Shown here: in pieces, positions 8,693 to 54,743 of the stretch | Numbering within the stretch: the first letter of the stretch is position 1 | Layout: each line of letters starts with the position of its first letter | IMG/VR virus record: IMGVR_UViG_3300028874_000010 | Coordinates: 32,001 to 96,000 of that record | Direction: 5' to 3' (one strand) | Source of the DNA: a virus | Length of the DNA stretch: 64,000 nucleotides | Program-made: the position numbers and the translations under genes | Notes under the pieces: model-generated | Told to the model about the DNA's origin: nothing | What the model saw: the letters and a program-made list of their open reading frames with translations, nothing else | Databases searched by the model: none

Positions 8693-8939
8693 CAAATATC
8701 TCGGTTGAGGCGTTTCATTAGTCCAGCCATTTTAGTTTTCCTTCTATTTGAAGATAAGTGTATCGTTATACGTATTGCTCATATGACTTCCAAATTCTTG
8801 ATTATATGATTCATAGCCCATGAGATTTTGCAAATCGCATCGTAATAAATGCCTTGACGGATCAAAGCATTTACGAAATCCTTTTTCTTTTCTTCGATGA
8901 ACTTCAATTGATCTTTCGTTACAATATTCTTAGGCGTAG

Positions 8940-10251: not shown

Positions 10252-11778
10252 TTACTGATTTGCCCGAATTCGAATGTCAGCAAGATTATAATCAACCAAG
10301 TTCTGTCCATTGACCCATACAGTTTCCAAAGCCTCAGTATGGTTTTCGTCAAGGTCTTCGATTCGGATGGTTTGATATTCACCTAAAAGATTCTTAGCAA
10401 CGGTCAAACGTCCTTTCTTACTTCTTTTCCCTTGATCAGTGATTGGATCCTTAAACACATCGACATACACACCGTTGATCTTTGCTGCACATGTCTTCAT
10501 TGCGAATTTCAAATCATCGCGGTTGACCATCTGAAGCAATCCACCACCTTGACCGAAGACAAGATTTTCAACGCTGTATCCAGCTTCCATCACTGCAATC
10601 AGGATACGTTCGAAGTCTTCAGAAGTAGCAAGTCCATCACCTTGAAGAATACGAACCACGTTAAGAACCTTGAAGCCCTTGTTATTGATCACAACGCCAT
10701 AATGTTCTGCGAACATATCAAGCAACGTCAGGATCACCGAAACTGGATCACCAGAATCAGGACGAACAACAAGATTGATTCCTGAATCAAGGATTTCCTG
10801 CTTCAACGTCGTGCAATAATGCATTGCAAGTTCGAAGATGTTATACCCGTCTGACACGATCGAGACGATGGTGCCTGGCGCTTTATTGTACGTACGAATC
10901 AAGTCACGTACGGTTTGCAATTCACCAGATTTGCCGCGCATCGTCATGATGCTGTGTTCTGTCGCAAAGACACTGAAAGCGGCCATCGCTTCGTTGTAAT
11001 ACACATTAGCATACAACACGCCGGTGATCGTATCCGATCCCATTGCACCAGTAGCCAAGTGAGCAAAGTCACCGATCCCAGCACTTTCTCGGCTTGACAC
11101 ACCGCGAGCACCGAAATCGTGATACATGAAAGCGATTGCTGATTCGATATCAAGATCGCTAGTCAAAGCCAAATACTTCTTGATGATGTTCCGGTTCTTC
11201 ATGCTACGAGTCGCGACAGTTACTGGATACCAAATCGCACGAAGCAAAGTGGTTTCGAAGTACGCTGCCATCCACGCAAGTTCTGGGTCCGTGCATTCGA
11301 TGGTGACTAGTGCGTTTTGAGAAGGAATCACTGTGCCCTCTGGGAGCGCCCTGATGATCAGAGGAGGATATCCTCCATAGACATTGACAACCTTTTCCCA
11401 ATCAGCACGCGGAAACATTTCACGACCACCAACGATATGAGCAGCGAAGAATTCTTCGGCTTGATCAATCATTGCATGAGTGATAGGCTTGAAACGCTTG
11501 CGCCAAAGTTGAAGACCGACGAAGAGAATCTTTTCGCCTTCAATGCGTGGTTCGATATAGGAAAATGCTGAAGTCACACCGAGAACTTTGTACATCGCTT
11601 GGTGACAAAGCTTATACGAATCTGTATCAAGGATTTCGTTATCTTCTGGGCGAGCAATGGTCCGAGGATCACCAAGTAGTTCCAGTTCTGCCCAAAGAGC
11701 AGCACGACGAAGAGCGATTGATTCGAAAGTCAGAGTGGTAGCATCAGCCACTTGATTAGTGTTAGGATACATATCCAT
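10252..11778 (-). CDS. nadV: Nicotinamide phosphoribosyltransferase
   Basis: TDSYK..H, HDFGARGVSS.ES, A.EHS, VRPDSGDP, QGDG, FG.GG.LLQ and KDPITD.GK.SKKG motifs. Confidence 0.95.
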   Translation of the reverse strand: MDMYPNTNQVADATTLTFESIALRRAALWAELELLGDPRTIARPEDNEILDTDSYKLCHQAMYKVLGVTSAFSYIEPRIEGEKILFVGLQLWRKRFKPITHAMIDQAEEFFAAHIVGGREMFPRADWEKVVNVYGGYPPLIIRALPEGTVIPSQNALVTIECTDPELAWMAAYFETTLLRAIWYPVTVATRSMKNRNIIKKYLALTSDLDIESAIAFMYHDFGARGVSSRESAGIGDFAHLATGAMGSDTITGVLYANVYYNEAMAAFSVFATEHSIMTMRGKSGELQTVRDLIRTYNKAPGTIVSIVSDGYNIFELAMHYCTTLKQEILDSGINLVVRPDSGDPVSVILTLLDMFAEHYGVVINNKGFKVLNVVRILQGDGLATSEDFERILIAVMEAGYSVENLVFGQGGGLLQMVNRDDLKFAMKTCAAKINGVYVDVFKDPITDQGKRSKKGRLTVAKNLLGEYQTIRIEDLDENHTEALETVWVNGQNLVDYNLADIRIRANQ

Positions 11779-20088: not shown

Positions 20089-21612
20089 TTAGTTATTTTT
20101 GGTCCCGTTGGCAATGTATTCAGTATCCATTTCACCAATGATTGTACTGGGTGACTCGATGACTACATCAAATTCCCAGAGATTAGCAAGATGACCGATA
20201 GTCTCTTTAACCGAGTCATCATCAAGTGGCCTATTCAAATACGGAGTATGAACGATGGTTAGAGTTCGGTCACCAAGAATATCTACATTATCAACTTGAA
20301 GATCCGGAACCCAGTTTGCTCGGTTATAACTTTCAGAAAGTGAATTCCGGACTTTGATATAACCATCATCATTATGGATTGCAGAAATCTCGACAAAATT
20401 CTCTTCTTGAATATCCGTAATAGAAAAGAATTTAAAATCACGAATTACTTTTGGAGACAAAAACTGTGCTATGAATGAATCATCTTTATAATTCTCCATT
20501 GCATCTTTAACAACAGGAAGCCATGGTGTCCCAGCAAACTTTGGAAACCAATGACGGTCTTCTTCTGTAGGGTTTTCACAGATTCGTTTGATATCCATGA
20601 AGATAGCAAACCCGAGTGCATACGGATTAATTCCGCTGAACCAGCGCTTATCAAATTCTGGTTGATACACCACATTGGTATGTGATGCTAAAAATTCTAT
20701 ATATGACCCAGATGAAACAAGACCTTTTTCATATAGCCGTGTCATAATGAAGTAATGCGTGAATGTTGCAAATCCTTCATTTAAGACTTTGGTTGATCCT
20801 TGTGGATAAAAGTACTGAGAGACTTTACGAACAATGCGGATGATTTCACGTTTCCAAGATGGTAAATCTGGTGCATATTTTTCAATGAAGTACAAGATAT
20901 TATCTTCCCGATCTGCTGGGAATTTTTCATCTTTGGCGTTTTCTAACGTGTTATTTTTCGGGACTGTTTTATCCCAGATAGGATTGAAATCAATACGGGC
21001 TTGTTCAAGCCGTTCCATCGCCCGCTTTTCTTCATCACTTGCACTGATAGATGGAGGGCGCTTATATCGATCAATCCCATAATTCATTAATGCATGGCAA
21101 CTATCTAAAAAGGCTTCAACTTCAGCAACCCCATATTTTTCTTCACACTTTGCAATATAGTTCTTGGCAAACAACAAATAATCAATAATTGCTGAAGCAT
21201 CAGTAAATTGTTTGAACATGAAATTGTTCTTGAACACTGCTGAATGTCCAGCCGATGCGTGAGCCATGACCAAACATTGCATAGTCATGTTGTTTTCTTC
21301 CATGAGATATGCGATACATGGATCTGAATTAATCACGATTTCATACGCTAGACCCATTTGGCCATGTTGGTATGATTTATAATTCTTCAGGAATTCTTTT
21401 CCAAACGACCAATGCTTATACATGATTGGAAGACCAGTTGATGCATAGGCATCAATCATTTGCTCGGCTGAAATGACTTCCATTTGAGGCCGATAATAAT
21501 CAAGCTGAAGTTCTTCCTTAGCGATCTTTTCGATTTCAATCCAAGTCTTTTCAAGAAGATCAAAAGACCAATCTTGACCTGGCCCAAACAGCGGTTTATT
21601 TTTCTTAGCCAT
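20089..21612 (-). CDS. spoVR: SpoVR family protein (YcgB)
   Basis: Y.HWSFGK, GLAYEIVINS.PCIAYL, TKVLNEG.ATF.H and INPYALG motifs. Confidence 0.95.
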   Translation of the reverse strand: MAKKNKPLFGPGQDWSFDLLEKTWIEIEKIAKEELQLDYYRPQMEVISAEQMIDAYASTGLPIMYKHWSFGKEFLKNYKSYQHGQMGLAYEIVINSDPCIAYLMEENNMTMQCLVMAHASAGHSAVFKNNFMFKQFTDASAIIDYLLFAKNYIAKCEEKYGVAEVEAFLDSCHALMNYGIDRYKRPPSISASDEEKRAMERLEQARIDFNPIWDKTVPKNNTLENAKDEKFPADREDNILYFIEKYAPDLPSWKREIIRIVRKVSQYFYPQGSTKVLNEGFATFTHYFIMTRLYEKGLVSSGSYIEFLASHTNVVYQPEFDKRWFSGINPYALGFAIFMDIKRICENPTEEDRHWFPKFAGTPWLPVVKDAMENYKDDSFIAQFLSPKVIRDFKFFSITDIQEENFVEISAIHNDDGYIKVRNSLSESYNRANWVPDLQVDNVDILGDRTLTIVHTPYLNRPLDDDSVKETIGHLANLWEFDVVIESPSTIIGEMDTEYIANGTKNN

Positions 21613-21811
21613 TATTCTTTCCAATTAACGTGCAAATTTTATTGCACTATCTACTTCATCACCAAAGGCCACTTTATCACAATCCGGATAAAACCACGCG
21701 ATACACCCAGTAGGTAGTTCGATTTTGAATTCATCTATTTTATCAGCTATGAATTCATAACGAGCTAGAATTATTTCTAACTCTTCCTGAGTATATTTTG
21801 TGCTAAGCCTG

Positions 21812-23119
21812 TCATTTAGTTTTCTTTTCAAACAATTTTTTGAACACTGGATAGATCTCAGCATCTTCATAGACATTAGCCATTTGAAAATTCTCAAAAT
21901 CTTTCTTTACATTTTCATAGGTCGTCCAAATATCACTTTGATATCCTGGTGTTGTTCCAACTTGGATGTACCCAAAATATTGGACATAAGGCATAATATC
22001 ATCGCAGAGCAATTCATAGCACGTGCCATTGTCGGTGTCCCAATTATCACCGTCCGAACATTGGCAAATATACACGTTTGTTGAATTATCAGAATAATCA
22101 TCCTTGATAATCTTAGATGCCAAATCCAATGCAGACGAAACCATTGTCCCGCCACTATCTCGAGTATTAAAGAATGTATCTTCATCAACTTCAAAAGCTT
22201 CAGTGGTATGGTAAATAAACCTAAGTGAAACCTTTTCATACTTACGAACTAAAAACATATACAACAAAGCAAAGAATTTTCTAGACAATGTCTTTTCATG
22301 AGGGCCCATAGATCCAGAATTGTCCATAATGCAGATCATCACAGCATTTATTGCTGGGTGTTCAACTGCAACAGTTGAATGATACCTAAGATCCAATGGA
22401 TCAAGAAATGGAACATTTTCCATCTTCACTTTATACCCAGTAATCTTCTTCTGAAGTTCTACTTTACGATTCTGTAATTCTTGATCTTCTTCGGCAGATC
22501 TAACAACAGCTTGAATCAATATAGCTTCAATTTGATTCAATTCATCTTGCGCGGCCTTCAATCGTTTCTTATAAGGGGCACGCTGTGAGATCCTACGTGA
22601 ATGTGAATTTCGGAGTGATTTACTCCGATCCAATTTTGCTGGCGTCCCATTTGTAGTGTGTCCAGCATTATGATGTTTAATTTCAATAACTTCTTTTAGA
22701 CCTTCCTTAACAAGATCTGGAAGCTCCAAATCTTCAAAGAAATATTCCAGAAATTCATCACGTGTAATTTCTACTACAAAGTCATCTTCACCAGACCCAT
22801 CAGGCGAACCCTTCTTGCCAAAGCCACCTCCAGTCTTTGGCGGCTTTCTGAATTTATCACCGGCATTAAAATCTTGGTTACCAGGTCTAACGGCTTCATA
22901 TGTCCCGCCTTCACCATGCCTAAAATTTGGTTCGCTGATACTTTTTTGTGGGATATGGATTACTCCACCATCAGAATCAATATCTTCAATTTTACGAGAA
23001 TTGATAATATCCGGCAAAGATTTTTTAACAGATTCACGAATTCGTTTTAGAAACTTTTGACGGTTATCTAATGACTTTCCCTTACCGTTTGGGCGCCGAT
23101 CTACAATAGAGAAGCTCAT
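21812..23119 (-). CDS. yeaH: YeaH/YhbH (DUF444) vWA-like protein
   Basis: DRR.NGK.KS..NRQ.F, DLELP, DLRY, MD.SGSM, SGGT.VSS and SDGDNW motifs. Confidence 0.95.
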   Translation of the reverse strand: MSFSIVDRRPNGKGKSLDNRQKFLKRIRESVKKSLPDIINSRKIEDIDSDGGVIHIPQKSISEPNFRHGEGGTYEAVRPGNQDFNAGDKFRKPPKTGGGFGKKGSPDGSGEDDFVVEITRDEFLEYFFEDLELPDLVKEGLKEVIEIKHHNAGHTTNGTPAKLDRSKSLRNSHSRRISQRAPYKKRLKAAQDELNQIEAILIQAVVRSAEEDQELQNRKVELQKKITGYKVKMENVPFLDPLDLRYHSTVAVEHPAINAVMICIMDNSGSMGPHEKTLSRKFFALLYMFLVRKYEKVSLRFIYHTTEAFEVDEDTFFNTRDSGGTMVSSALDLASKIIKDDYSDNSTNVYICQCSDGDNWDTDNGTCYELLCDDIMPYVQYFGYIQVGTTPGYQSDIWTTYENVKKDFENFQMANVYEDAEIYPVFKKLFEKKTK

Positions 23120-23120
23120 A

Positions 23121-23345
23121 TTATTCTTTTCCTGAAGTAGGAGTTATTTTAATTCTACAAGCAAATAACTGATTGGTGACGTTAGCTGATGGCCCATTAT
23201 TTTCCAAGAGCACAGCTTGTTCACATGTCTGAGCATGAGCTATTGCATCATTTGCTTTGACATTGTAACTCCAAATGAAGAAACCAAGCCCAAGAATAAC
23301 ACTTGCAACCGCTATCCAAAATGCGCACCAAACATTATCTCTCAT
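23121..23345 (-). CDS. Small membrane protein inserted in the prkA-yeaH-spoVR operon
   Basis: N-terminal transmembrane segment. Confidence 0.55.
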   Translation of the reverse strand: MRDNVWCAFWIAVASVILGLGFFIWSYNVKANDAIAHAQTCEQAVLLENNGPSANVTNQLFACRIKITPTSGKE

Positions 23346-23452
23346 AATACTTTCTCATTATCAAATTATATGCGATCTCTAGAAATTAATCTAGAGGCCT
23401 CTTCTCTCTACTTATATTAAATTTTAGGAAAATCTTTATAACATATATCTAA

Positions 23453-23483
23453 GAAGGTTACTCCGTAATATGGAGTAACCTTC
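23453..23483. terminator. Hairpin downstream of prkA
   Basis: gaaggttactcc ... ggagtaaccttc. Confidence 0.6.
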
Positions 23484-23503
23484 CTCAAATTCTATTGCGA
23501 GAA

Positions 23504-25444
23504 TTACTGATTTTTACGGATACGTAGCCACCATTCAACAAGTAGACGGGTTTGGCGTTGCGTATAACCCTTATCGGCCATCCGCTTGACAAATGATTCA
23601 TGAGCTTCTTGATCCTTCTTTGATCCTTTAGAAGTGAAGCTGATCACTGGTAGAATTTCTTCTGTCCCAGCGAACATTTTCTTTTCAATAACTTGGCGCA
23701 TCTTTTCAAAGTCGTTCCAGGCAGGCATATTGCCTTTATGGCCGGCTTTATGGCGAAGCACAAAGTTAACAACTTCATTCCGGAAATCTTTCGGGTTCAC
23801 AATACCTGCAGGCTTTTCAACTTTTTCTAGCTCAGCATTCAATGTCGAGCGATCAAATTGTTCGCCAGTATCAGCATCACGGAAATCTTCATCGCGGATC
23901 CAGAAATCTGCATATTGGACATATCGATCAAAAATGGTTTGGCCATAATCGCTGTATGAATCCATAAAGGCAATCCGGATTTCCTTTTCAACGAACTCAG
24001 CATACTTGTCGCCAAGTTGGTGCTTAATCAAATTGATCAGGTGTTCTTCACGATCTGATGGAAATTGTTCCTTGACGATTTCATTTTCCAAGACATACAT
24101 CAAGTGAACCGGGTTAGCACCGATTTCTTCAGTATCAAAGTTAAATACCTTTGATAGGATCTTGAATGCAAATCGGGTCGAGATTCCGTCCATGCCTTCA
24201 TTGACACCAGCAACATCCTTATATTCTTGGAGCGGCTTAGCACGTGGATCAACATCTTTGATATTTTCGCCATCATAGACGCGCATCTTGGAATATAGAT
24301 TCGAATTGGCTGGTTCAACCAACCGGGACATGACTGCAAACTTGGCAAGCATTTCAAGAGTTTCTGGTGCAAATGGAGACTTGGCCAATTTACTTTTCGC
24401 CAACATCTTTTTATAGATGCCGACTTCTTCACTAGCACGTAGGCAATATGGAATCTTGACAATGTTAACACGATCCAAGAACGCTTCATTGTTCTTGTTG
24501 TTACGGAAGGTCTTCCATTCACTTTCATTGGAGTGAGCAAGAACAATGCCATCGAAAGGAATACTGGAAATAGAATCTGTTCCGTTGTAATTCTTTTCTT
24601 GAGTTGCTGTCAAGAGTGGATGAAGCATCTTGATTGGGGCTTTGAACATTTCGACAAAGTCCAAGATCCCTTGATTAGCATTACATAGACCACCGGAGAA
24701 GCTATATGAATACGGGTTATCTGCAGCGTATTCTTCTAACATCCGGATATCAGTTTTACCAACCAGTGTCGTAATGTCTTGGTTGTTTTCATCACCAGGT
24801 TCTACTTTAGCAATCGCAATATTATTCAGAATGGAAGGATATTGCTTGATTACAGTCAATGACGAATGATCACCTTTCAGGTCTTCAAGCTTTTGCGCCA
24901 GCCAAGGAGACATTTTGACTCGAAATGCACTTGCCGGAATATCATATTCTTCTTCAAGGGCAGCACTGTGAAGATCGACATCAAAGATGGAAAGAGGATT
25001 ATCATGAATTGGAGAACCTTTGATGAAATAGATTGGTTCCTTTTCCATCAGTTCTTTCAACTTTTCGGCGATCGACGATTTACCACCACCGACGGGTCCG
25101 AGTAGATAAAGAATTTGTTTACTTTCTTCAAGGCCTTGAGCACTATGCCGGAAGTAAGAAACAATTGATTCGATTGCATCTTCCATGCCAAAGAAATCTT
25201 TGAAGGCTGGATAGATTTTGATGATGCGATTTGAAAAAATGCGGCTGAGGCGAGCATCAGTTTTTGTATCAACGAATTCCGGTTCGCCGATTGCCTTGAG
25301 CATACGCTCGGCTGGCGAAGCATAAACCGAAGGATCACTTTTGCAAAGATTCAAATATTCTTGAATCGACATTTCTTCCTGGGTGTTACGCTTAGCGTAA
25401 TCATTGGAAAATCTCGCCAGTACGCCCGAGTGTGCTTTGGACAT
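23504..25444 (-). CDS. prkA: PrkA/YeaG AAA+ serine protein kinase
   Basis: GPVGGGKS, EPGDENNQD, FVEMFKAPIK.LHPLLTATQE and KVEKPAGI.NPKDFRNE motifs. Confidence 0.97.
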   Translation of the reverse strand: MSKAHSGVLARFSNDYAKRNTQEEMSIQEYLNLCKSDPSVYASPAERMLKAIGEPEFVDTKTDARLSRIFSNRIIKIYPAFKDFFGMEDAIESIVSYFRHSAQGLEESKQILYLLGPVGGGKSSIAEKLKELMEKEPIYFIKGSPIHDNPLSIFDVDLHSAALEEEYDIPASAFRVKMSPWLAQKLEDLKGDHSSLTVIKQYPSILNNIAIAKVEPGDENNQDITTLVGKTDIRMLEEYAADNPYSYSFSGGLCNANQGILDFVEMFKAPIKMLHPLLTATQEKNYNGTDSISSIPFDGIVLAHSNESEWKTFRNNKNNEAFLDRVNIVKIPYCLRASEEVGIYKKMLAKSKLAKSPFAPETLEMLAKFAVMSRLVEPANSNLYSKMRVYDGENIKDVDPRAKPLQEYKDVAGVNEGMDGISTRFAFKILSKVFNFDTEEIGANPVHLMYVLENEIVKEQFPSDREEHLINLIKHQLGDKYAEFVEKEIRIAFMDSYSDYGQTIFDRYVQYADFWIRDEDFRDADTGEQFDRSTLNAELEKVEKPAGIVNPKDFRNEVVNFVLRHKAGHKGNMPAWNDFEKMRQVIEKKMFAGTEEILPVISFTSKGSKKDQEAHESFVKRMADKGYTQRQTRLLVEWWLRIRKNQ

Positions 25445-25591
25445 TAACAACTCCTATTATTTTCAAAGTTTTGATTGAGAGAAACTACTGGTGAATCTAC
25501 TACTATTATTTTGTGGTTCAGCATAAATACGATTTTTACACACAAGTTTTTTATTGTAAATCAAATTAGACTTGTTATTATGCTTTGCAGC

Positions 25592-30237: not shown

Positions 30238-30332
30238 TGGAGGAAGAAACGGGATTCGAACCCGTGGACCTAGGGTTTGCCTAGATCTATAGCTTTCCAA
30301 GCTATCGCAATCGGCCGCTCTGCCACTCTTCC
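30238..30332 (-). tRNA. tRNA-Ser(GGA)
   Basis: Cloverleaf, loop TTGGAAA, long variable arm, GTTCGAATC, encoded CCA. Confidence 0.92.
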
Positions 30333-37102: not shown

Positions 37103-37126
37103 ATTATTCTATTTTTAAATATCGGG

Positions 37127-39941: not shown

Positions 39942-40017
39942 TGGAGTCTCGAGACGGAATCGAACCGCCATAGATGGGTTTGCAAGCCATTGCCTAATGC
40001 CATTCGGCCATCGAGAC
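39942..40017 (-). tRNA. tRNA-Cys(GCA)
   Basis: Loop TTGCAAA, U73 discriminator, encoded CCA; one anticodon-stem mismatch. Confidence 0.85.
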
Positions 40018-46783: not shown

Positions 46784-47059
46784 TTATTTCTTTTTCAACA
46801 TTAACAAAACATACCGAGTTGCTTCTTTTGCATTTTTCGCTGGCGCCTTCCAAATCTTTTCATCGGCTAGATTTTTGCCATTGTATTTCAATGGCTTATC
46901 TCCATCCATCACTACATTGCCGTTATCGATCACATACACATCAAAGTGAGATGCTTCAGATAATTTAGCAAGCTTTTCCCACAATTTCTTTCCGCCAATG
47001 TATTGCGTGTGATAGGAAATTAAAACATATCCAAATTCAATCAAACTCAAATATAGATT
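46784..47059 (-). pseudogene. 5'-truncated duplicate of the 48677-49318 gene
   Basis: NLYLSLIEFGYVLISYHTQYIGGKKLWEKLA...TRYVLL.LKKK aligns with the C-terminal ~90 aa of 48677-49318. Confidence 0.75.
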
Positions 47060-47094: not shown

Positions 47095-47856
47095 TTAGCA
47101 CCAAATTCCTTGGCCCAAGAATAACTTTTCAAGTATGCTAGGATTCTTTTCGTATTTAGACCAGGCATTTTCTAGTTGAGCCAATCTATCAGTAACTATT
47201 TTTAATGCTGAAATATTCAAGACCATGCCCAAATGACTTGAAAAAATTTCAATGTTTTCAGATTGACTTGATTCTTTTTCTTGACTCGATACCCAAGGAA
47301 CAACACCATCAGTTTTGCTATACACCGAAGTCGTAGGAACCGGAGGAGTATTGTGTGGATAATATTGTTCGTGACGCCCAGATTCTTTTGACACTAAATT
47401 AAATAAAGCGGTTGCTTTAGTACATTCGGTAATGTCAGAGAAAGGAGTTCCTAAAGTAATAACTAAACGAGTTTCGTCTGGACATAACTTAGATAATTCC
47501 CTAGCAAATACTCCGCCAAGAGAATGACCAACCAATGAAACTTTGCGACCGGTTTGTTGATATGTTGTGTTGATTAGTTGGATGCATTTTTCTACGACAC
47601 CTGGCTCTGGTCCTTTATTAATACCAAGACCCCAAGGAATAACCTGATACCCGAGACTCTTTAAAAGAGAACGAAGATAGATAGTAGAAAAATCGCCGTA
47701 TCCATATCCAGGAAATACTATAACTGGATGACCATCGCCTATTTGATAATCTGTATAAGGACGTAGAATTAAAGATGTGATGAATTCAAACATCAATCTT
47801 GATTCTAGTAGAATAGGAATAATCCCTGGTGTGGAAACTTCTTTTGTATCATTCAT
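47095..47856 (-). CDS. Alpha/beta hydrolase (esterase/lipase-like)
   Basis: GDGHPV.V.PG, GHSLGG, DGVV and HLG catalytic triad. Confidence 0.9.
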   Translation of the reverse strand: MNDTKEVSTPGIIPILLESRLMFEFITSLILRPYTDYQIGDGHPVIVFPGYGYGDFSTIYLRSLLKSLGYQVIPWGLGINKGPEPGVVEKCIQLINTTYQQTGRKVSLVGHSLGGVFARELSKLCPDETRLVITLGTPFSDITECTKATALFNLVSKESGRHEQYYPHNTPPVPTTSVYSKTDGVVPWVSSQEKESSQSENIEIFSSHLGMVLNISALKIVTDRLAQLENAWSKYEKNPSILEKLFLGQGIWC

Positions 47857-47972
47857 ATAATCCCGAAGGTAATAAACCGTGTTAGATATTTATTACTTTA
47901 ACCCCGTTCATACTTGATCAAATAATCAATCCGATTTTAGCTTCATTCAATGCAGAAACTATAGCTGAAAAT

Positions 47973-48011
47973 GTTATTATTCTCTAATATGGTGTTAGAG
48001 AATAATAACAT
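47973..48011. repeat. 16-bp inverted repeat
   Basis: tgttattattctctaa ... ttagagaataataaca. Confidence 0.75.
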
Positions 48012-48033
48012 AGGGTGTTTATATAGAGTAAGA

Positions 48034-48354
48034 TTAGCTTCGGAAGTAATCGAGAATTTTTTGTTTGATTTCTTGAGTTGTTGCAGTGTAATGAAATGTA
48101 GCGAGTTCATCACCCTTGTCATCGAGAATCGTCATGAATTGCTTTGAACGGCCTTGATGATGGACGTAAAACTTAATTCGCTTACCCATACATCGCATAT
48201 ACACCACAGATCGACCAACCTCGATAGTGGACATTCGTTTCAAATCTTGATCTTCAAACAAAGCTTTTGCATGTTCAAAGAATAAAGAAGAAGACCAACC
48301 ACCAGCTTGAAGATACTCATCGATTGATTTTGTGAGTTGCATGAGAATTTTCAC
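48034..48354 (-). CDS. Hypothetical early protein
   Basis: Preceded by TTTACA-17-TGTGGTACAAT promoter (48378-48406). Confidence 0.65.
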   Translation of the reverse strand: MKILMQLTKSIDEYLQAGGWSSSLFFEHAKALFEDQDLKRMSTIEVGRSVVYMRCMGKRIKFYVHHQGRSKQFMTILDDKGDELATFHYTATTQEIKQKILDYFRS

Positions 48355-48414
48355 CTCTAGTACAATAAGTTAAGTTAATTGTACCACATTCTGTGAAAAG
48401 TGTAAAACTATAAT

Positions 48415-48492
48415 TGGTACCCAATCTCGGATTCGAACCGAGAACATTAAGCTTTTGAAGCTTACGCGTCTACCAGATTGCGCCAATTGGGC
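48415..48492 (-). tRNA. tRNA-Leu(CAA), short variable loop
   Basis: Loop TTCAAAA, A73-CCA. Confidence 0.9.
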
Positions 48493-48583
48493 AGTGTAAT
48501 ACGAAAAATTATTTCAATTCTTTAGAAGTCCCAACCAATAGAATTGGCTTATGTAATTATTCATGAAATTAATTTGGCAGCGG

Positions 48584-48672
48584 AGGAAGATATGGGATTC
48601 GAACCCATGGGCCACCATAAGGCGACCTCCTGTTTAGCAAACAGGTATAATTAACCGCTCTACCAATCTTCC
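48584..48672 (-). tRNA. tRNA-Ser(GCT), CCA not encoded (CCG)
   Basis: Loop TTGCTAA, long variable arm. Confidence 0.9.
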
Positions 48673-48676
48673 TTTG

Positions 48677-49318
48677 TTACTTCTTTTTCATAGCTAGTAA
48701 TACATATCTGGTTGAATCTTTAGCTGACTTTGCTGGAGTCTTCCAAATCTTTTCATCTGTAATATTCTTGCCATCATATTTCAATGGACTTCCGGAATCA
48801 TCAAGGATTACATTTCCGTTGTCAATCACGTATACATCAAATTTATCACCAGAGAACCTCGCTAACTTTTCCCACAACTTCCTACCACCAATATATTGAG
48901 TGTGATCAGAAATCAAAACAAAACCATATTCGACTAAACTTAAATACAAATTGTAGCCGAAGCCATTGGCTTTTTCTTTACTGTATACTTCAACTACATC
49001 TACTTGAAGTACATTCTTAGAAGTTAAAATTTCTTCATCATAAGACAAATCCAGCTTACTTTTAAATTCTAATTTTCCAATTAGGTTAAGGCCGATTTTT
49101 TTATCTTCCTTACGAACAGATAATATGCCAATTACAGCAAAGCTTTTATCTTTTTTCAGGATAGACCATACTTCTTCATCATTGACTTTGACCTTCCCGA
49201 TACTATCAAAATCTCGTTTGATAGTATCTTCAGAATAAAATCGCATAGTACCAGACATTACAACAGGCATTTCTTTGTCGATAAATTCTGGCATTTCAAA
49301 TAGCTCTTCTATTTTCAT
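48677..49318 (-). CDS. GNAT-like phage protein (paralog family)
   Basis: GFGYNLY...ISDHTQYIGGRKLW; MKIEELFEMP N-terminus. Confidence 0.65.
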   Translation of the reverse strand: MKIEELFEMPEFIDKEMPVVMSGTMRFYSEDTIKRDFDSIGKVKVNDEEVWSILKKDKSFAVIGILSVRKEDKKIGLNLIGKLEFKSKLDLSYDEEILTSKNVLQVDVVEVYSKEKANGFGYNLYLSLVEYGFVLISDHTQYIGGRKLWEKLARFSGDKFDVYVIDNGNVILDDSGSPLKYDGKNITDEKIWKTPAKSAKDSTRYVLLAMKKK

Positions 49319-49322
49319 AATC

Positions 49323-49763
49323 TTATAGTTTCTTGGTTTCAGACAATAGAAGTTTATCAATATAAATCACAACTTCTTGTTCATCACCATAACCTTCTTC
49401 TAATTCTTGATCGGCTAATTTATGTAATTCTTCAGGAGTGAATTCATTTACACCTTTAACAAATTCCAACCAATCTTCTTTATCCATCCCAGTCACATGG
49501 ACTAATAATGAATTTTTTTCAAGCCAATCAAGATTGTATTCGACCTTCACAATCTTAGCGTGTCGTTTCAATAATTTTTTGACATTAAGCTCTAATAAAA
49601 TATTGCCGAAATCTTCTGTCTGATTTGCTTCTTTATCTGGAGTCGCACACAATGTACCGCGTTTAAAAGTCAATTCTCCTGTACTAGTTAATGTATGATA
49701 TTGAGCATCACCCATGCGATGGTACAATTTAGTATACGGCGAAGCAAGTTCATATAATTTCAT
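49323..49763 (-). CDS. Possible ADP-ribosyltransferase-fold protein
   Basis: LYHR ... CATPD ... FG.ILLEL ... EQEVV pattern; MKLYEL N-terminus. Confidence 0.4.
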   Translation of the reverse strand: MKLYELASPYTKLYHRMGDAQYHTLTSTGELTFKRGTLCATPDKEANQTEDFGNILLELNVKKLLKRHAKIVKVEYNLDWLEKNSLLVHVTGMDKEDWLEFVKGVNEFTPEELHKLADQELEEGYGDEQEVVIYIDKLLLSETKKL

Positions 49764-49797
49764 TTTATACATCTGATTTCATTTTATTGATATGAAC

Positions 49798-49892
49798 TGG
49801 CGGAGGACCGGGGTCTCGAACCCCGACGTCTTATTAGGGACACACTACGTTCGAAGTAGTTTCCGCTAGGCCAAAACTCGGATAAGTCCTCC
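49798..49892 (-). tRNA. tRNA-Ser(CGA)
   Basis: Loop TTCGAAC, long variable arm, G73-CCA. Confidence 0.85.
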
Positions 49893-49897
49893 AATCT

Positions 49898-50155
49898 TTA
49901 ATCTTCAATGAAAATCGTAAGGTCATCACTGCTCCAATCGAAATTCAAAAGCTCGACTTTATACTTCTTAGCCAATGTCCTTGCATCGGCTTCAAATGCA
50001 TCCATATCATGTTCAGCAGCTTGGTTAGTGAGATATAGCTTAATTTCATCGTCACTGGTTTCAGCTGTATCGGCTGGGATATGATGCTTCTTTGCTAACT
50101 CTTCAAGAGCCACAACAAAACTCTTTTTACCTTCAAAAATCTCTGCTATTTTCAT
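49898..50155 (-). CDS. Small acidic late protein
   Basis: GATAAATA at 50183-50190; MKIAEIFE N-terminus. Confidence 0.6.
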   Translation of the reverse strand: MKIAEIFEGKKSFVVALEELAKKHHIPADTAETSDDEIKLYLTNQAAEHDMDAFEADARTLAKKYKVELLNFDWSSDDLTIFIED

Positions 50156-50215
50156 TACTATCCTTGAAATAAATGGTTACTTTATTTATCTCCATTCTAT
50201 CATAAAAACAAGGTA

Positions 50216-50292
50216 TGGTCCCCATCCTCAGCTTCGAACTGAGAACATTATCCTTTTAAGGGATACGCGTCTTCCAATTGCGCCAGATGGGG
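50216..50292 (-). tRNA. tRNA-Leu(TAA), short variable loop
   Basis: Loop CTTAAAA, A73-CCA. Confidence 0.9.
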
Positions 50293-50293
50293 A

Positions 50294-50385
50294 TGGAGGA
50301 AAAGATGGGATTCGAACCCATGGACCCACTTTCGCGAGCCGTTAGTTTTCAAGACTAATGCAATAACCCGCTCTGCCACTCTTCC
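50294..50385 (-). tRNA. tRNA-Ser(TGA)
   Basis: Loop CTTGAAA, long variable arm, CCA. Confidence 0.92.
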
Positions 50386-50510
50386 ATTTGTTATAATAAA
50401 TACCGTCTATGACGGCACCTCACTTCTATTCACTGCAGCTATCACTTATGAAGGCCTTGGTGAAATGTATAAAGAGTTTTTGAAGTAATATCAATACTTC
50501 ATAAAACATT

Positions 50511-50596
50511 TGGTGCACGTTATAGGATTCGAACCTATTCAGGCACAAGGCCCACGCGTTTACAGCGCGCTTATCTCTCCAGAGGATTGAACGTAC
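50511..50596 (-). tRNA. tRNA-Tyr(GTA)
   Basis: Loop CTGTAAA, long variable arm, A73-CCA; atypical D arm. Confidence 0.8.
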
Positions 50597-50606
50597 ATTA
50601 TAAAAC

Positions 50607-50632
50607 TGGTGGACCACCTAGGTAACGATCCT
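50607..50632 (-). pseudogene. 3' remnant of a tRNA (T loop, acceptor 3' strand, CCA)
   Basis: ggatcgttacct-aggtggtccacca with no matching 5' half. Confidence 0.55.
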
Positions 50633-50644
50633 TCCATTTATTAC

Positions 50645-50734
50645 TGGTGAATGTCGATAGGAATTGAACCTTCTTTGGCCTATTAAGGCATCAGCTTATC
50701 GGCTGACCGCGCTACCATTACGCACTACACATTC
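50645..50734 (-). tRNA. Aberrant tRNA-like gene: 6-nt anticodon loop CGATAA (Ile GAT-like), long variable arm
   Basis: Acceptor gaatgt/acattc plus ACCA, D arm gcg/cgc, tcagc/gctga stem, GTTCAATT. Confidence 0.55.
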
Positions 50735-50763
50735 ATTACTTCTTATCTACAACTTAGCAATTT

Positions 50764-50838
50764 TGGAGACGCTACGGAGAATTGAACTCGCGATTTATTC
50801 CTTGAAAGGGAATTTTCCTACCTTTAGAAGATAGCGTC
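50764..50838 (-). tRNA. tRNA-Glu(TTC)
   Basis: Loop CTTTCAA, CCA. Confidence 0.85.
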
Positions 50839-50850
50839 ATAATAAAACTT

Positions 50851-50924
50851 TGGCAGGCTTGCGGGGAATCAAACCCCAGTCAGCGGTTTTGGAGACCGTT
50901 ATGTTATCACTACACTACAAACCT
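50851..50924 (-). tRNA. tRNA-Trp(CCA)
   Basis: Loop CTCCAAA, G73-CCA. Confidence 0.88.
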
Positions 50925-50936
50925 ATTAAAACATTT

Positions 50937-51027
50937 TGGTGGGTTGGAAAGGAATTGAACCTATACAGACTTATTGACATCGCGTCGCGTTTACAGCGCG
51001 GGGAGCTCACCAGTGCTCAGCCAACCC
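50937..51027 (-). tRNA. tRNA-Tyr(GTA), second copy
   Basis: Loop CTGTAAA, long variable arm, A73-CCA. Confidence 0.85.
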
Positions 51028-51090
51028 ATTTACTAAGTGCATTCAGATAAAAACTCTGGCATGTATTCCTATTCCATCACATGTGCATTC

Positions 51091-51288
51091 GTAATTAATT
51101 TAAAGTTGAAGTCTACAAAATTTGTATGAGGATTCGAACCCATGTCTCCGACTTTCAAGATCGGCGCCTTACCACTTGGCCAACAAATTCAGAAATTTCA
51201 AATCTTGGCGCGTCAACACCAAGATCACTTATTCAGGTAGACTCAACTGTCGAAACAGTTGACGCTATTTCAACTTTAAATTAACTAC
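51091..51288 (-). ncRNA. ~200-nt structured RNA with an embedded tRNA-like domain (51118-51190, anticodon TGA, short variable loop, no CCA)
   Basis: 20-bp closing stem, UUCG-capped 8-bp hairpin, gtctac/gtagac stem, 9-bp hairpin and full cloverleaf; G.U pairs favour the minus strand. Confidence 0.75.
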
Positions 51289-51291
51289 TCG

Positions 51292-51368
51292 TGGTGGCCA
51301 TCCTCGGACTCGAACCGAGAACATTTACGCTCTAAACGTAACGCGTCTTCCAATTGCGCCAGACGGCC
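51292..51368 (-). tRNA. tRNA-Leu(TAG), short variable loop
   Basis: Loop TTTAGAG, A73-CCA; first gene after the attenuator. Confidence 0.9.
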
Positions 51369-51394
51369 AAAATATTACATTTACCGGATTCAGA

Positions 51395-51428
51395 AAACAA
51401 AAAAGGCGAATCGTTTAGGATTCGCCTT
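51395..51428 (-). terminator. Intrinsic terminator (attenuator) in front of the tRNA array
   Basis: AAGGCGAATC-ctaaac-GATTCGCCTT followed by TTTTGTTTT. Confidence 0.85.
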
Positions 51429-51454
51429 GATGTTAGGATCTGAAGAGTATGTAT

Positions 51455-51553
51455 TTACATACTGTGTCCAGCTCTTACATTCAAGGCGTGTGCCCACTCA
51501 TACGATAAACTCTCGTATGAATAAGACAACAGGCTGAGTGATGAACTGAACAT
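51455..51553 (-). CDS. Leader peptide MFSSSLSLLSYSYESLSYEWAHALNVRAGHSM of a putative tRNA-sensing attenuator
   Basis: AAGGA RBS; codons 3-20 are only Ser/Leu/Tyr/Glu/Trp; contains antiterminator strand CGCCTTGA (51481-51488). Confidence 0.85.
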   Translation of the reverse strand: MFSSSLSLLSYSYESLSYEWAHALNVRAGHSM

Positions 51554-51577
51554 TTTAAATCCTTAATTAGTGTTTTG

Positions 51578-51625
51578 TGCTACAAAAGTATTTATAGCAG
51601 GTTTTGAATCAATATGAAGATTATA
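51578..51625 (-). promoter_or_regulatory. Promoter region of the leader and tRNA operon: late box TATAAATA (51589-51596) and upstream TATAAT (51620-51625)
   Basis: Consensus matches; extended TATAAATACTTTTGTAGCA shared with the NAD operon. Confidence 0.7.
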
Positions 51626-51678
51626 TGCTGTTTTTTGATATTTTAATACTACCAAATTGTAACAACATATTACGAGGC

Positions 51679-52359
51679 TTATTCTAGGTATAACCAGTTT
51701 GCTACTTCGATGCTGAGTTCCATCTCTTTGACTGCAGCCGGAATATTCTTAGCTACATTGATAAGTTTTTGTAGGCTGTCTTGTTTAGTTCCAACAAATT
51801 CTGACGAAGTGAACCAATATTCTTCGGAAGCAAAGTCATCATTGGCAATCAATGCGATTGCTTCTTCACGATTTTTAGCTTTTGGTTTCTTCATAAAGCC
51901 AAAGAACCCTTTTTGTGGTGTCATATAATAAGCGATAAGCCTATCTTGACACGTTTTTTTAGAAACTTCAATTTGTTCTAGGGCCAAAATAGATTTACTA
52001 ATAACAAGTTCTTTTGGAATTAATACAAAGCCTAGTTTAGTGGAGGACATATATTTTTCTACGTTATTTTTAGGTGGGTAATCATCGAAATGATCTATAT
52101 TTAATGTGAAGATGTCGGGGCACGATGGATCATATGCGGTGACCCAAACACCAAATAACTTAATATCTTCTACAACATATTCTAACAACTTTGGGCTTGG
52201 CAAAGGTAAGAGTGAGCCCATCCATTCTTCAAGGTCCTTAATTCGACTAATGAAAAATTCTCTAGTCGCAAGATCATCTTCGCAATCTATAATGATAGGA
52301 TTATTAATCCCATGAGGCGCCCCTCTTGTTTTGCTAGGCCTAACTACAAATTTTGTCAT
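51679..52359 (-). CDS. Hypothetical protein
   Basis: ORF. Confidence 0.6.
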   Translation of the reverse strand: MTKFVVRPSKTRGAPHGINNPIIIDCEDDLATREFFISRIKDLEEWMGSLLPLPSPKLLEYVVEDIKLFGVWVTAYDPSCPDIFTLNIDHFDDYPPKNNVEKYMSSTKLGFVLIPKELVISKSILALEQIEVSKKTCQDRLIAYYMTPQKGFFGFMKKPKAKNREEAIALIANDDFASEEYWFTSSEFVGTKQDSLQKLINVAKNIPAAVKEMELSIEVANWLYLE

Positions 52360-52491
52360 TGTTTTATATTGTGCTGTACGCCGCCAGGACGTTTAGTGGT
52401 GTTTAGTGGTCTTGGATATATCCAGCTAATATCTTGATCACACTCGCGGCGTCCTGGTTATTATAGCGAGGACTATACGATTCTTTCTATG

Positions 52492-52770
52492 TTATTGCCT
52501 GGTTGCTCTTTTCAGGTACACATAAAATGGAGCTAAGAGATGGGTTGACTTTAATTTTTCAATCCACTCTGGAGTCCAGATAAAATCTGGATTTGTGTTT
52601 ATGCATTTTCGCCACCCAAGCCTAACTAATTCGGCTTCCATTTCATATGACATGTGGGTGCCAAAAATTAGTTTAAGCAAATCGCCTTGATCGAGACGTT
52701 CATATATTTCGACTTGGGCGTCAGATAAATCTGTTGCAATGGACTGAAACTCATGAGCTTGGGTATTCAT
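52492..52770 (-). CDS. Hypothetical protein
   Basis: ORF. Confidence 0.55.
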   Translation of the reverse strand: MNTQAHEFQSIATDLSDAQVEIYERLDQGDLLKLIFGTHMSYEMEAELVRLGWRKCINTNPDFIWTPEWIEKLKSTHLLAPFYVYLKRATRQ

Positions 52771-52773
52771 GGT

Positions 52774-53055
52774 TTATTCTCCCGGTACATTTAAAACAGG
52801 GAGGACTGCATAGGCCTCCCAATTAGCCCACCATTGATATCGACACTGGACTTGATTTCTACCATGGCCTGAAACATAATCACCAAATTTAGTTGAATCA
52901 ATTCGCCAATGATCAACATCAATTTTTGACATAGTCCCAATCATCTCACCATCAAGATAGATTTCAAACATTTCGAGAATTGAGCAATTCCGACTAACTG
53001 GAATAGAAACAAACTTGATGTTAGTTGGAAAATCTATGTCAGGTGTCGCCATCAT
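52774..53055 (-). CDS. Hypothetical protein
   Basis: AGGA RBS. Confidence 0.55.
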   Translation of the reverse strand: MMATPDIDFPTNIKFVSIPVSRNCSILEMFEIYLDGEMIGTMSKIDVDHWRIDSTKFGDYVSGHGRNQVQCRYQWWANWEAYAVLPVLNVPGE

Positions 53056-54118: not shown

Positions 54119-54487
54119 TTATTTTTTACTTCTAAAATATGATGTCAAGTACCCATTAATATTTAAGGCGCCAGCGGGATTACTTGAATGAACACTCCAA
54201 GTAAAATTATTTGGCAGTTCATGAAGGCCATCCAATTCACCATCAACTAGCCACTTAGCGAAATCATATCCGGATTTCGCTTCTTGACCGAGATCTGTGA
54301 TCAAACCTTCGGGACCCGGTTGAAGCATATCCCACCCCAAATCATGATCGAATGCAACATGCAATGGCGGGCCGTAATTTTTACAGAACATAACGGCTTC
54401 ATCAAAACTTCTAGCGACTAGATATTTCCGGCCATCATTAACATATTCCGGATTTCGTATGTCGTCAATAAATAAATTCCAGTTCAA
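54119..54487 (-). CDS. Cyclic-phosphate-processing receiver-like domain protein
   Basis: LFIDD.R, FDHDLG, SGYD.AKWL and VHS.NP.G motifs; probable TTG start at 54487. Confidence 0.75.
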   Translation of the reverse strand: MNWNLFIDDIRNPEYVNDGRKYLVARSFDEAVMFCKNYGPPLHVAFDHDLGWDMLQPGPEGLITDLGQEAKSGYDFAKWLVDGELDGLHELPNNFTWSVHSSNPAGALNINGYLTSYFRSKK

Positions 54488-54488
54488 A

Positions 54489-54743
54489 TTAGCCGCCCAA
54501 TACCAAAAATGTTTTGTTGTAATGCAGTTGACCTGGCTTAATGAATCTGGAGCCACGAAGATCAGTAAATTCGACATTGCTATCATCGCCATCAAGAATC
54601 AAATCTACAGTAGAAACAGAAGTATGCCAGTCACCGCGGTGTTCTTTGAGAACTTCCAAGATCACATCTTCCGGAAGTGTTTGAAGATATGCGATCAATT
54701 CATCACGAGTTGCTCTTTTATTTTTCATGATTTTCCGACCCAT
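54489..54743 (-). CDS. Hypothetical protein
   Basis: ORF. Confidence 0.55.
   Translation of the reverse strand: MGRKIMKNKRATRDELIAYLQTLPEDVILEVLKEHRGDWHTSVSTVDLILDGDDSNVEFTDLRGSRFIKPGQLHYNKTFLVLGG

Follow-up and report, generated by a model that had tools for sequence, protein, structure and literature searches.

A tRNA block in a peat phage probably gated by a leader-peptide attenuator whose codons match the amino acids of the block

Here we describe an element located ahead of a block of tRNA genes in a 64,000-nt stretch of DNA (the window; bases 32001-96000) of the 112-kb virus record IMGVR_UViG_3300028874_000010 of IMG/VR (G000); positions are those of the window unless a contig is named. 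The element is very likely a ribosome-mediated (leader-peptide) transcription attenuator that gates the tRNA block, and it is best read as a classical kinetic attenuator with a leader of the trp/ilv type. An earlier note, made from the letters of the window, had proposed an attenuator whose codons mirror the downstream array, and this core claim has gained support from four DNA copies, two leader classes, spacing, covariation and the position of a modelled footprint boundary, all of which are presented below. The window has a GC content of 37% and carries nearly all of its genes on the minus strand; among the sequencing data listed, it was found in DNA contigs of peat metagenomes only, with no RNA data set among them, and the contigs compared are identical, of low depth and free of variants.

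All parts of the element lie on the minus strand. It begins with TATAAATA (51589-51596), a promoter-like motif of the T4-late type located 35 nt upstream of the leader ATG, and continues with the Shine-Dalgarno sequence AAGGA (51560-51564), 6 nt upstream of the ATG, and an open reading frame (ORF) of 32 sense codons plus TAA (51455-51553; ATG at 51553-51551, TAA at 51457-51455). The motif, the ribosome-binding site and the ORF can be read directly from the strand, just as the earlier note had them. Codons 3-20 (51494-51547), which we call the control codons, specify Ser, Leu, Tyr, Glu and Trp only, and the internal hairpin TCATACGA/TCGTATGA that had been noticed within them is present and predicted to fold. 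Codons 22-26 form the 5' arm of a predicted antiterminator (51477-51488), which consists of CGCCTTGA, one bulged A and TGT, and pairs with the 3' arm ACA-TCAAGGCG (51423-51433). The 8-nt complementarity reported between these arms is exact, CGCCTTGA (51488-51481) being the complement of TCAAGGCG (51430-51423), and it overlaps the 5' arm of a 10-bp terminator, since the last six bases of the antiterminator 3' arm are the first six of the terminator stem. Enclosed by the two arms is an inner hairpin, AGTATGT/ACATACT (51446-51463), which includes the final two sense codons plus the first nucleotide of TAA. The candidate intrinsic terminator itself (51394-51428) has a 10-bp stem (51428-51419/51412-51403), a 6-nt loop, CTAAAC, and then TTTTGTTTT; the energy of its hairpin is -14.1 kcal/mol, its G+C-rich stem begins 26 bases past the stop codon, and a scan of 5 kb (47800-52800) revealed no other strong terminator on the minus strand. 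The first tRNA gene, Leu(TAG), begins at 51368, 26 nt after the U-run. An Rfam cmscan of 47500-52500 with E values up to 1 gave tRNA-type matches plus two chance-level matches elsewhere, and neither the His, Trp, Thr and Leu leader families nor the T-box models had a match in 51394-51600.

TATAAATA is the consensus of T4 late promoters, and by analogy with T4 the phage may use it as a late promoter. The 112-kb record has 14 copies of it on the gene strand and a single one on the opposite strand; its total count is not above chance, so that only strand and position are informative. Its usual place is 20-60 nt upstream of a ribosome-binding site or directly ahead of a tRNA gene, and other genes behind it have a similar AAGGA-type site. 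Past the leader, the next same-strand copy is not reached until 44091. In the three related copies of the element introduced below, the motif lies 36-42 nt upstream of the leader ATG. Gly and Met tRNA genes are found directly behind the motif, with neither leader nor terminator, at G000 ~100278 (tRNA-Gly), L287:7096, L287:6507 and L286:14849. Also on the minus strand, downstream of 63770, TATAAATA and a ribosome-binding site precede a minigene that reads ATG TTA TGA.

The tRNA block behind the leader (48415-51368, minus strand) was delimited with ARAGORN, Rfam and the ORF list. ARAGORN calls Leu(TAG), a Ser(TGA)-like tRNA of 74 nt, two Tyr tRNAs, Trp, Ser(TGA), Leu(TAA), Ser(GCT) and Leu(CAA), to which Rfam adds Glu(TTC) at 50767-50838 with 47.9 bits. 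The earlier note had counted ten tRNAs for the same five amino acids as the control codons, and ARAGORN and Rfam together bear out the amino acids; the Ser(CGA) gene at 50649-50734, however, scores 22.7 bits against the tRNA-Sec model, which is below threshold, and is therefore a candidate only. The block opens with Leu(TAG), the short Ser(TGA)-like gene, Tyr, Trp, Glu(TTC), the candidate Ser(CGA), Tyr, Ser(TGA) and Leu(TAA), followed by three small ORFs and then by Ser(GCT) and Leu(CAA). Neither the inner members of the array nor the single tRNA genes scattered in the window (Cys at 39942, Ser at 37124 and Ser at 30238) have a leader of their own.

Several features of the tRNA genes are recorded here in their own right. 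The second tRNA of the block (51117-51190), with its 74 nt, is unusually short for a tRNA-Ser. The Leu tRNAs at 51292-51368, 50216-50292 and 48415-48492 are just 77-78 nt long and therefore do not have the long variable arm that is normal for bacterial tRNA-Leu, and the Leu(TAG) and Leu(TAA) genes are near-identical in the D-arm region. The protein encoded inside the block at 48677-49360 has a shorter paralogue 1.6 kb downstream (46784-47050), the C-terminal part being common to both; the protein gives weak matches to PHROGs of unassigned function. Genes for tRNAs with the anticodon TCA (opal-suppressor type; labelled SeC by ARAGORN) are present both in G000, at 101639-101716, 5.6 kb past the end of the window, and in its relative G001, on the minus strand at L286:12535-12610 and L286:13815-13891.

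The composition of the control codons is that of the tRNA block. Codons 3-20 comprise eight Ser, four Leu, three Tyr, two Glu and one Trp codon in 13 different triplets, as had been counted before, and Leu, Ser, Tyr, Trp and Glu are also the amino acids of the block. In the six frames of the 112-kb record, this run of 18 codons is the longest composed of the set Ser/Leu/Tyr/Cys/Glu/Trp, the next longest runs having nine codons (set with Cys) and eight codons (set without Cys); the chance expectation for a run of this length, derived from six-frame codon frequencies, is ~8e-5. With relaxed U34 wobble, the tRNAs of the array read 18 of the 19 codons after the ATG, and all of its distinct anticodons (9/9) have a cognate codon among the control codons.

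The tRNA-leader region had no match in the phage collection, at either the nucleotide or the protein level, and the 226-aa gene just upstream of the leader region matched only itself in homologue and phage-collection searches. A relative was reached via a gene located 2.6 kb upstream (54119-54595, phrog_1479), which led, at 56% identity, to locus L001 of the 185-kb IMG/VR contig G001. The window and G001 have in common the gene order phrog_1479 gene, Gln-rich lipoprotein, small protein and leader element. A third phage contig, L085, was found by a scan for the terminator/tRNA pattern. Exact-pattern scans with tRNA or terminator motifs gave either no match or mostly generic terminators, and a filter requiring a tRNA behind the match was applied, which among the matches listed only G001 and L085 passed. 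Three peptides (P0004, P0005 and P0006) were added through protein searches. The DNA comparison covers four copies in three phages, namely those of the window, of L001 and L286 (both in G001) and of L085. The 112-kb record has a single AAGGCG...CGCCTT hairpin, that of the terminator, and every such hairpin in the examined sequences of G001 and L085 stands behind a leader; the four elements therefore constitute one homologous family. In three complete jumbo phages with a weaker homologue of the phrog_1479 gene (G002-G004), the tRNA genes are dispersed, and there is no such leader at the heads of arrays.

G001 has 51 tRNA genes and two leaders, each ahead of an array of its own. The homologous leader at L001:9643-9744 has 33 codons and a TAA stop, with TATAAATA ahead of it and a terminator with the same stem and a U-run behind it. 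Its array contains 14 tRNA genes, for Leu(TAG), Leu(GAG), Trp, Glu (three genes) and Tyr (two genes) as well as Ser(GGA), Ser(TGA), Cys, Ser(CGA), Ser(GCT) and Leu(CAA), and codons 4-22 of the leader are 19 consecutive Ser/Leu/Tyr/Cys/Glu/Trp codons, exactly the six amino acids of the array. All 19 can be read by the array tRNAs under strict wobble, and 11 of 11 anticodons are sampled. The two Cys codons of this leader accompany a Cys tRNA gene in its array; the window leader has no Cys codon, and the Cys tRNA gene of the window phage lies 8.4 kb beyond the block, behind another TATAAATA. The second leader of G001 (L286:6098-6250; 50 codons and TAA) likewise has TATAAATA ahead of it, and is followed by the same terminator, AAGGCGAATCC...GGTTCGCCTT, its U-run and then the first tRNA of an array of 24 tRNA genes (L286:6328-10340), which serve 13 amino acids (Gln, Met, Ala, Arg, Phe, His, Asn, Val, Pro, Ile, Lys, Thr and Asp). 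Codons 2-39 of this leader specify exactly these 13 amino acids, with no Ser, Leu, Tyr, Cys, Glu, Trp or Gly, and the first residue outside the set appears at codon 40. The two paralogous leaders of G001 divide the amino acids as their arrays do (38:0 versus 2:19 for the two amino-acid sets; Fisher p = 1.5e-13). Gly is the sole amino acid outside both leader classes of G001, and Gly tRNA genes stand alone behind TATAAATA without a leader.

The leader of the third contig (L085:2459-2599; 46 codons and TAA) obeys the same 13-amino-acid rule; the array behind it has tRNAs for His, Gln, Met, Thr, Val, Pro, Ile, Arg, Lys and Asp, and the contig ends before any Phe, Ala and Asn tRNAs could appear. 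The restricted runs, of 18 (window), 19 (L001), 38 (L286) and 34 codons (L085), are each the longest of their set in six frames. In P0004, P0005 and P0006, the control-region substitutions relative to the known leaders all stay within the proper set and the tails diverge freely. Out-of-set amino acids start immediately past the control region, only 2 of 12 and 2 of 11 tail residues belonging to the array set in the two Ser/Leu/Tyr-type leaders. All four leader ORFs stop at TAA and none at TGA. Leader content tracks array content in the related phages at the amino-acid level, including the gain of Cys codons in L001, and the frame, the composition rule and the antiterminator complementarity are kept in the four copies. 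With regard to the organization of the tRNA genes, those of G001 are sorted by amino acid into two blocks (L286:6328-10340 and L288:10078-12697); the smaller one holds all class II (long-arm) types, that is, Leu, Ser and Tyr, together with Cys, Trp and Glu, and, Glu and Phe aside, corresponds approximately to the set of amino acids with U-initial codons.

Although the control regions vary between 19 and 38 codons in length, the geometry of the module downstream of them is fixed in all four copies. A conserved GCCTT, whose GCC codon lies 9-10 codons ahead of the stop, pairs with the AAGGC that opens the terminator stem; the gap between the two is 53-55 nt, and the distance from stop to terminator is 26-30 nt. 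The pairing extends outward with sequences that are specific to each copy (GA/TC, GGTTG/CAATC, ATCGG/CCGAT and GTC/GAC). In the four-sequence alignment, 85.7% of the cells of the antiterminator helix are paired and 4 of its 11 pairs have changed on both sides, whereas sliding the partner by 1-3 columns leaves at most 44% paired and almost no covariation. The antiterminator is thus maintained by compensatory changes; the terminator stem is nearly invariant across the copies and, in terms of covariation, says nothing either way. Before the 3' arm of the terminator exists, the predicted fold in 4/4 copies is an outer helix that encloses an inner stop-codon hairpin, at about -25 kcal/mol versus -13 to -14 kcal/mol for the terminator hairpin. 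The inner hairpin differs in sequence between the copies and contains or abuts the stop codon in each of them (4/4). The only conserved tail residues, (A/S)-(H/Q)-A-L, are encoded by the codons that form the antiterminator arm.

The effect of ribosome position was modelled by assuming a footprint that keeps positions -15 to +12 single-stranded, counted from the first nucleotide of the A-site codon, and by asking at each stall codon whether the five core antiterminator pairs can form. In this model, stalls leave the antiterminator free up to codon 18-19 in the window, 21 in L001, 37-38 in L286 and 33-34 in L085, and past those codons the core pairs are blocked until 3-4 codons ahead of the stop. 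The composition rule ends at codons 20, 22, 39 and 35, respectively, that is, within 1-2 codons of the modelled boundary in all four copies. The codons held to the restricted set are therefore just those at which a stalled ribosome would leave the antiterminator free, in copies that differ in length. Once at the stop codon, a ribosome covers neither the 5' arm, which is 24-31 nt behind it, nor the terminator of the window, which is 26 nt ahead. The earlier note had held that full translation masks the antiterminator; the model agrees with this for a ribosome within codons 20-29, which covers the arm, but not for a ribosome at the stop, which leaves the arm uncovered. The equilibrium probability of the terminator did not discriminate between ribosome positions, and a co-transcriptional proxy was used instead.

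From these features we propose the following mechanism. Transcription would start at the late-type TATAAATA promoter, and a ribosome would translate the 32-codon leader behind the polymerase. When the Ser, Leu, Tyr, Glu and Trp codons are decoded rapidly, the ribosome would be at codons 20-29 or at the stop while the terminator is being made. At codons 20-29 it would cover the 5' arm of the antiterminator; at the stop codon it would sit inside the antiterminator loop and melt the inner hairpin, which may be the reason why the stop codon is kept in that hairpin. In either position the antiterminator would be prevented and the terminator hairpin would form, so that only a short leader RNA would be produced. 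When a cognate charged tRNA is scarce, the ribosome would stall within codons 3 to ~18, leaving the 5' arm (51488-51477) free to pair with 51433-51423 as soon as the latter is made; six bases of the terminator stem would then be occupied, and the polymerase would read through into the tRNA genes. The output of the array would in this way be tied to the decoding of its own codons, and, since the block supplies tRNAs for the control codons, the circuit would constitute a negative feedback on decoding capacity.

Several observations weigh against this mechanism. The aligned DNA copies number four, come from three related phages and are homologous; therefore, the covariation counts are small and the matches in composition are not fully independent events. 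In the copies of G001 and L085, the Shine-Dalgarno sequence is either weak or far from the start codon (GAGAG or AGGAAG, 9-16 nt upstream of the ATG). A ribosome that stalls at the final one or two control codons, among them the only codon for Trp, masks the antiterminator in the footprint model and does not free it. Equilibrium folding of the complete leader favours the terminator at any ribosome position, and so the switch must be kinetic. Finally, an extra TATAAATA lies inside the Ser/Leu/Tyr-type array of G001 (L288:11415, corresponding to G001 ~137415). This copy of the motif precedes a 118-aa ORF and a Ser/Cys/Leu half-array, and the half-array may have a second, unattenuated promoter through which it would escape the attenuator.

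A different view would be that the attenuator reads general translation capacity, such as ribosome availability, a global slowdown or late coupling, and that the matched composition is a by-product of ancestry or of the phage tRNA supply. We consider this improbable, although it deserves attention for two reasons. First, the earlier note had suggested that the leader senses individual isoacceptors through its many synonymous codons, and this did not hold: when the amino-acid sequence was kept fixed and synonymous codons were resampled from phage codon usage, the mirror at the isoacceptor level was not significant (P = 0.18, 0.19 and 0.88), the synonymous choice thus covering isoacceptors no better than phage codon usage predicts. 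Second, the nearest published case responds to general translational stress (PMC8421152, PMC10272220): the long tRNA array (trn operon) of Anabaena sp. PCC 7120 is silent until translation is stressed, in a paper that makes no mention of an attenuator, leader or terminator (PMC8421152), and TrcR, a ribbon-helix-helix repressor, is the link between translational stress and this array (PMC10272220). A general sensor, however, needs no composition rule, and here the rule divides the amino acids between the two leaders of G001 exactly as between their arrays, stops at the modelled footprint boundary and is respected by the substitutions in the homologues. The Anabaena system resembles our proposal in that impaired translation turns on a spare array of tRNA genes; it differs in being controlled by a repressor protein and in being bacterial rather than of phage origin.

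It is somewhat less probable still that the ORF is a late gene in its own right, encoding a small peptide rich in Ser, Leu and Tyr, with the tRNAs being transcribed independently or by leakage. The ORF does have a promoter-like motif, a ribosome-binding site and a terminator of its own, and relatives have conserved stretches of the peptide in common (MF..SL.LLS and EWA.AL, 61% identity). Yet this would leave unexplained why leaders of two separate classes each have the composition of their tRNA set, and why the C-terminal third is free in its amino acids but fixed in length and RNA pairing, the conserved A-L being encoded by GCC TTR (GCC TTG or GCC TTA), which pairs with the terminator arm. 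In addition, the 26 nt from the U-run to the first tRNA are too short for another promoter. Rfam finds no family in the leader DNA; the Pfam and PHROGs searches covered the genes neighbouring the leader. Equally improbable is a switch of opposite sign, with positive feedback, in which read-through would increase when the leader is translated efficiently, perhaps through the removal of an anti-antiterminator. In its favour, the whole leader of the window is predicted to fold, without ribosomes, with the start of the ORF paired to the antiterminator arm and the terminator intact, and any read-through therefore requires some passage of ribosomes. Against it, a ribosome that has reached the stop still lies 26-30 nt short of the terminator and is unable to block it, one within codons 20-29 lies over the antiterminator arm, and the control codons are upstream of that arm, as in the trp, his and ilv leaders, with the rule ending where stalls cease to be productive.

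Attenuator leaders are well known from enterobacteria, where they precede ilvGMEDA (Ile/Leu/Val), thr (Thr/Ile), ilvBN, trp, his, leu and pheA. The multivalent leaders of ilvGMEDA and thr are closest to the element of the window, with which they share a promoter, a short ORF with cognate codons located just upstream of the antiterminator arm, mutually exclusive antiterminator and terminator hairpins, a U-run and the reading of more than one amino acid per leader. However, they control biosynthetic enzymes and read one to three amino acids, whereas the phage leaders precede tRNA genes and cover five to six or 13 amino acids in 18-38 codons. The phage elements further differ from them in the late-type promoter, in the placement of the stop codon inside the inner antiterminator hairpin and in having no match to an Rfam leader family. 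Premature termination that depends on tRNA charging is also known at aminoacyl-tRNA synthetase genes, through the pheST attenuator with its pheM leader and through T-box riboswitches. In these systems, as in our proposal, genes of the translation apparatus are switched by termination according to the charging state of tRNA, but pheM reads Phe only and controls a synthetase, and T-boxes, for which the window gave no match, bind uncharged tRNA without translation. A leader peptide on a mobile element, orf12 ahead of tet(M) on Tn916, has been proposed to sense the pool of charged tRNA via rare codons. It likewise is an attenuator that depends on aminoacyl-tRNA availability; unlike the element of the window, it controls a resistance protein, is proposed to follow the reverse logic (faster leader translation leads to read-through) and shows no match between the leader and a tRNA set. 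In full-text searches of the literature on leader peptides, attenuation, tRNA arrays and operons, phage tRNAs and jumbo phages, we found no leader-peptide attenuator placed before tRNA genes. What appears to be new is the application of attenuation to tRNA genes and the number of amino acids covered by one leader, up to 13.

Phage tRNAs can counter defences that target tRNAs, as described for the AriB nuclease of PARIS (PMC12409363) and for Schlafen-type nucleases (PMC13462974). Such cases provide a reason for a phage to have spare tRNAs and to sense depletion, and the papers describe the tRNAs and the nucleases but no cis-acting sensor (PMC12409363, PMC13462974). For the switch proposed here, these defences are context for a possible trigger and not proof of one. 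The circuit could equally be an alarm for host tRNAs that have been cleaved, are not charged or decay late in infection; the present evidence does not separate an alarm for tRNA cleavage from a feedback of supply and demand, and we hold any particular trigger with much less confidence than the attenuator itself. More tentatively still, the tRNA genes of large phages might be split into separately sensed regulons with codon-matched leaders, one for the Ser/Leu/Tyr/(Cys)/Glu/Trp block and one for the 13-amino-acid block, with Gly being constitutive. The arrangement would serve as a counter-defence alarm, in which the tRNAs of a block would be made only when the host class is cut or uncharged, and in which the Ser/Leu/Tyr block would answer nucleases that prefer class II tRNAs. 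This is a possibility that we regard as doubtful.

With regard to the other genes of the window, a PrkA/DUF444 (YeaH)/SpoVR triad, a NAMPT-type nicotinamide phosphoribosyltransferase and an FtsH-like AAA protease are encoded at 20089-25450 and also at 10252-11778 and 6812-8695. The PrkA protein shows 58-60% identity to genes of uncultured phages of 630-640 kb and of Ralstonia phage RsoM2USA.

To our knowledge, the regulation of the often large tRNA sets of phages is largely unknown, and these sets are usually treated as constitutive fixes for codon usage or as counter-defence cargo. If the attenuator that we propose is real, the tRNA supply of a phage would be controlled by demand, through a sensor placed at the very codons that the array serves. 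Classical attenuation, known for amino-acid synthesis, would then apply to tRNA genes as well, its range would widen from 1-3 amino acids to 13, and the sorting of tRNA arrays by amino acid would be explained. The correspondence between leader composition and array content would provide a simple rule for finding more switches of this kind, and it could aid predictions of the host tRNAs whose loss a phage is prepared for.

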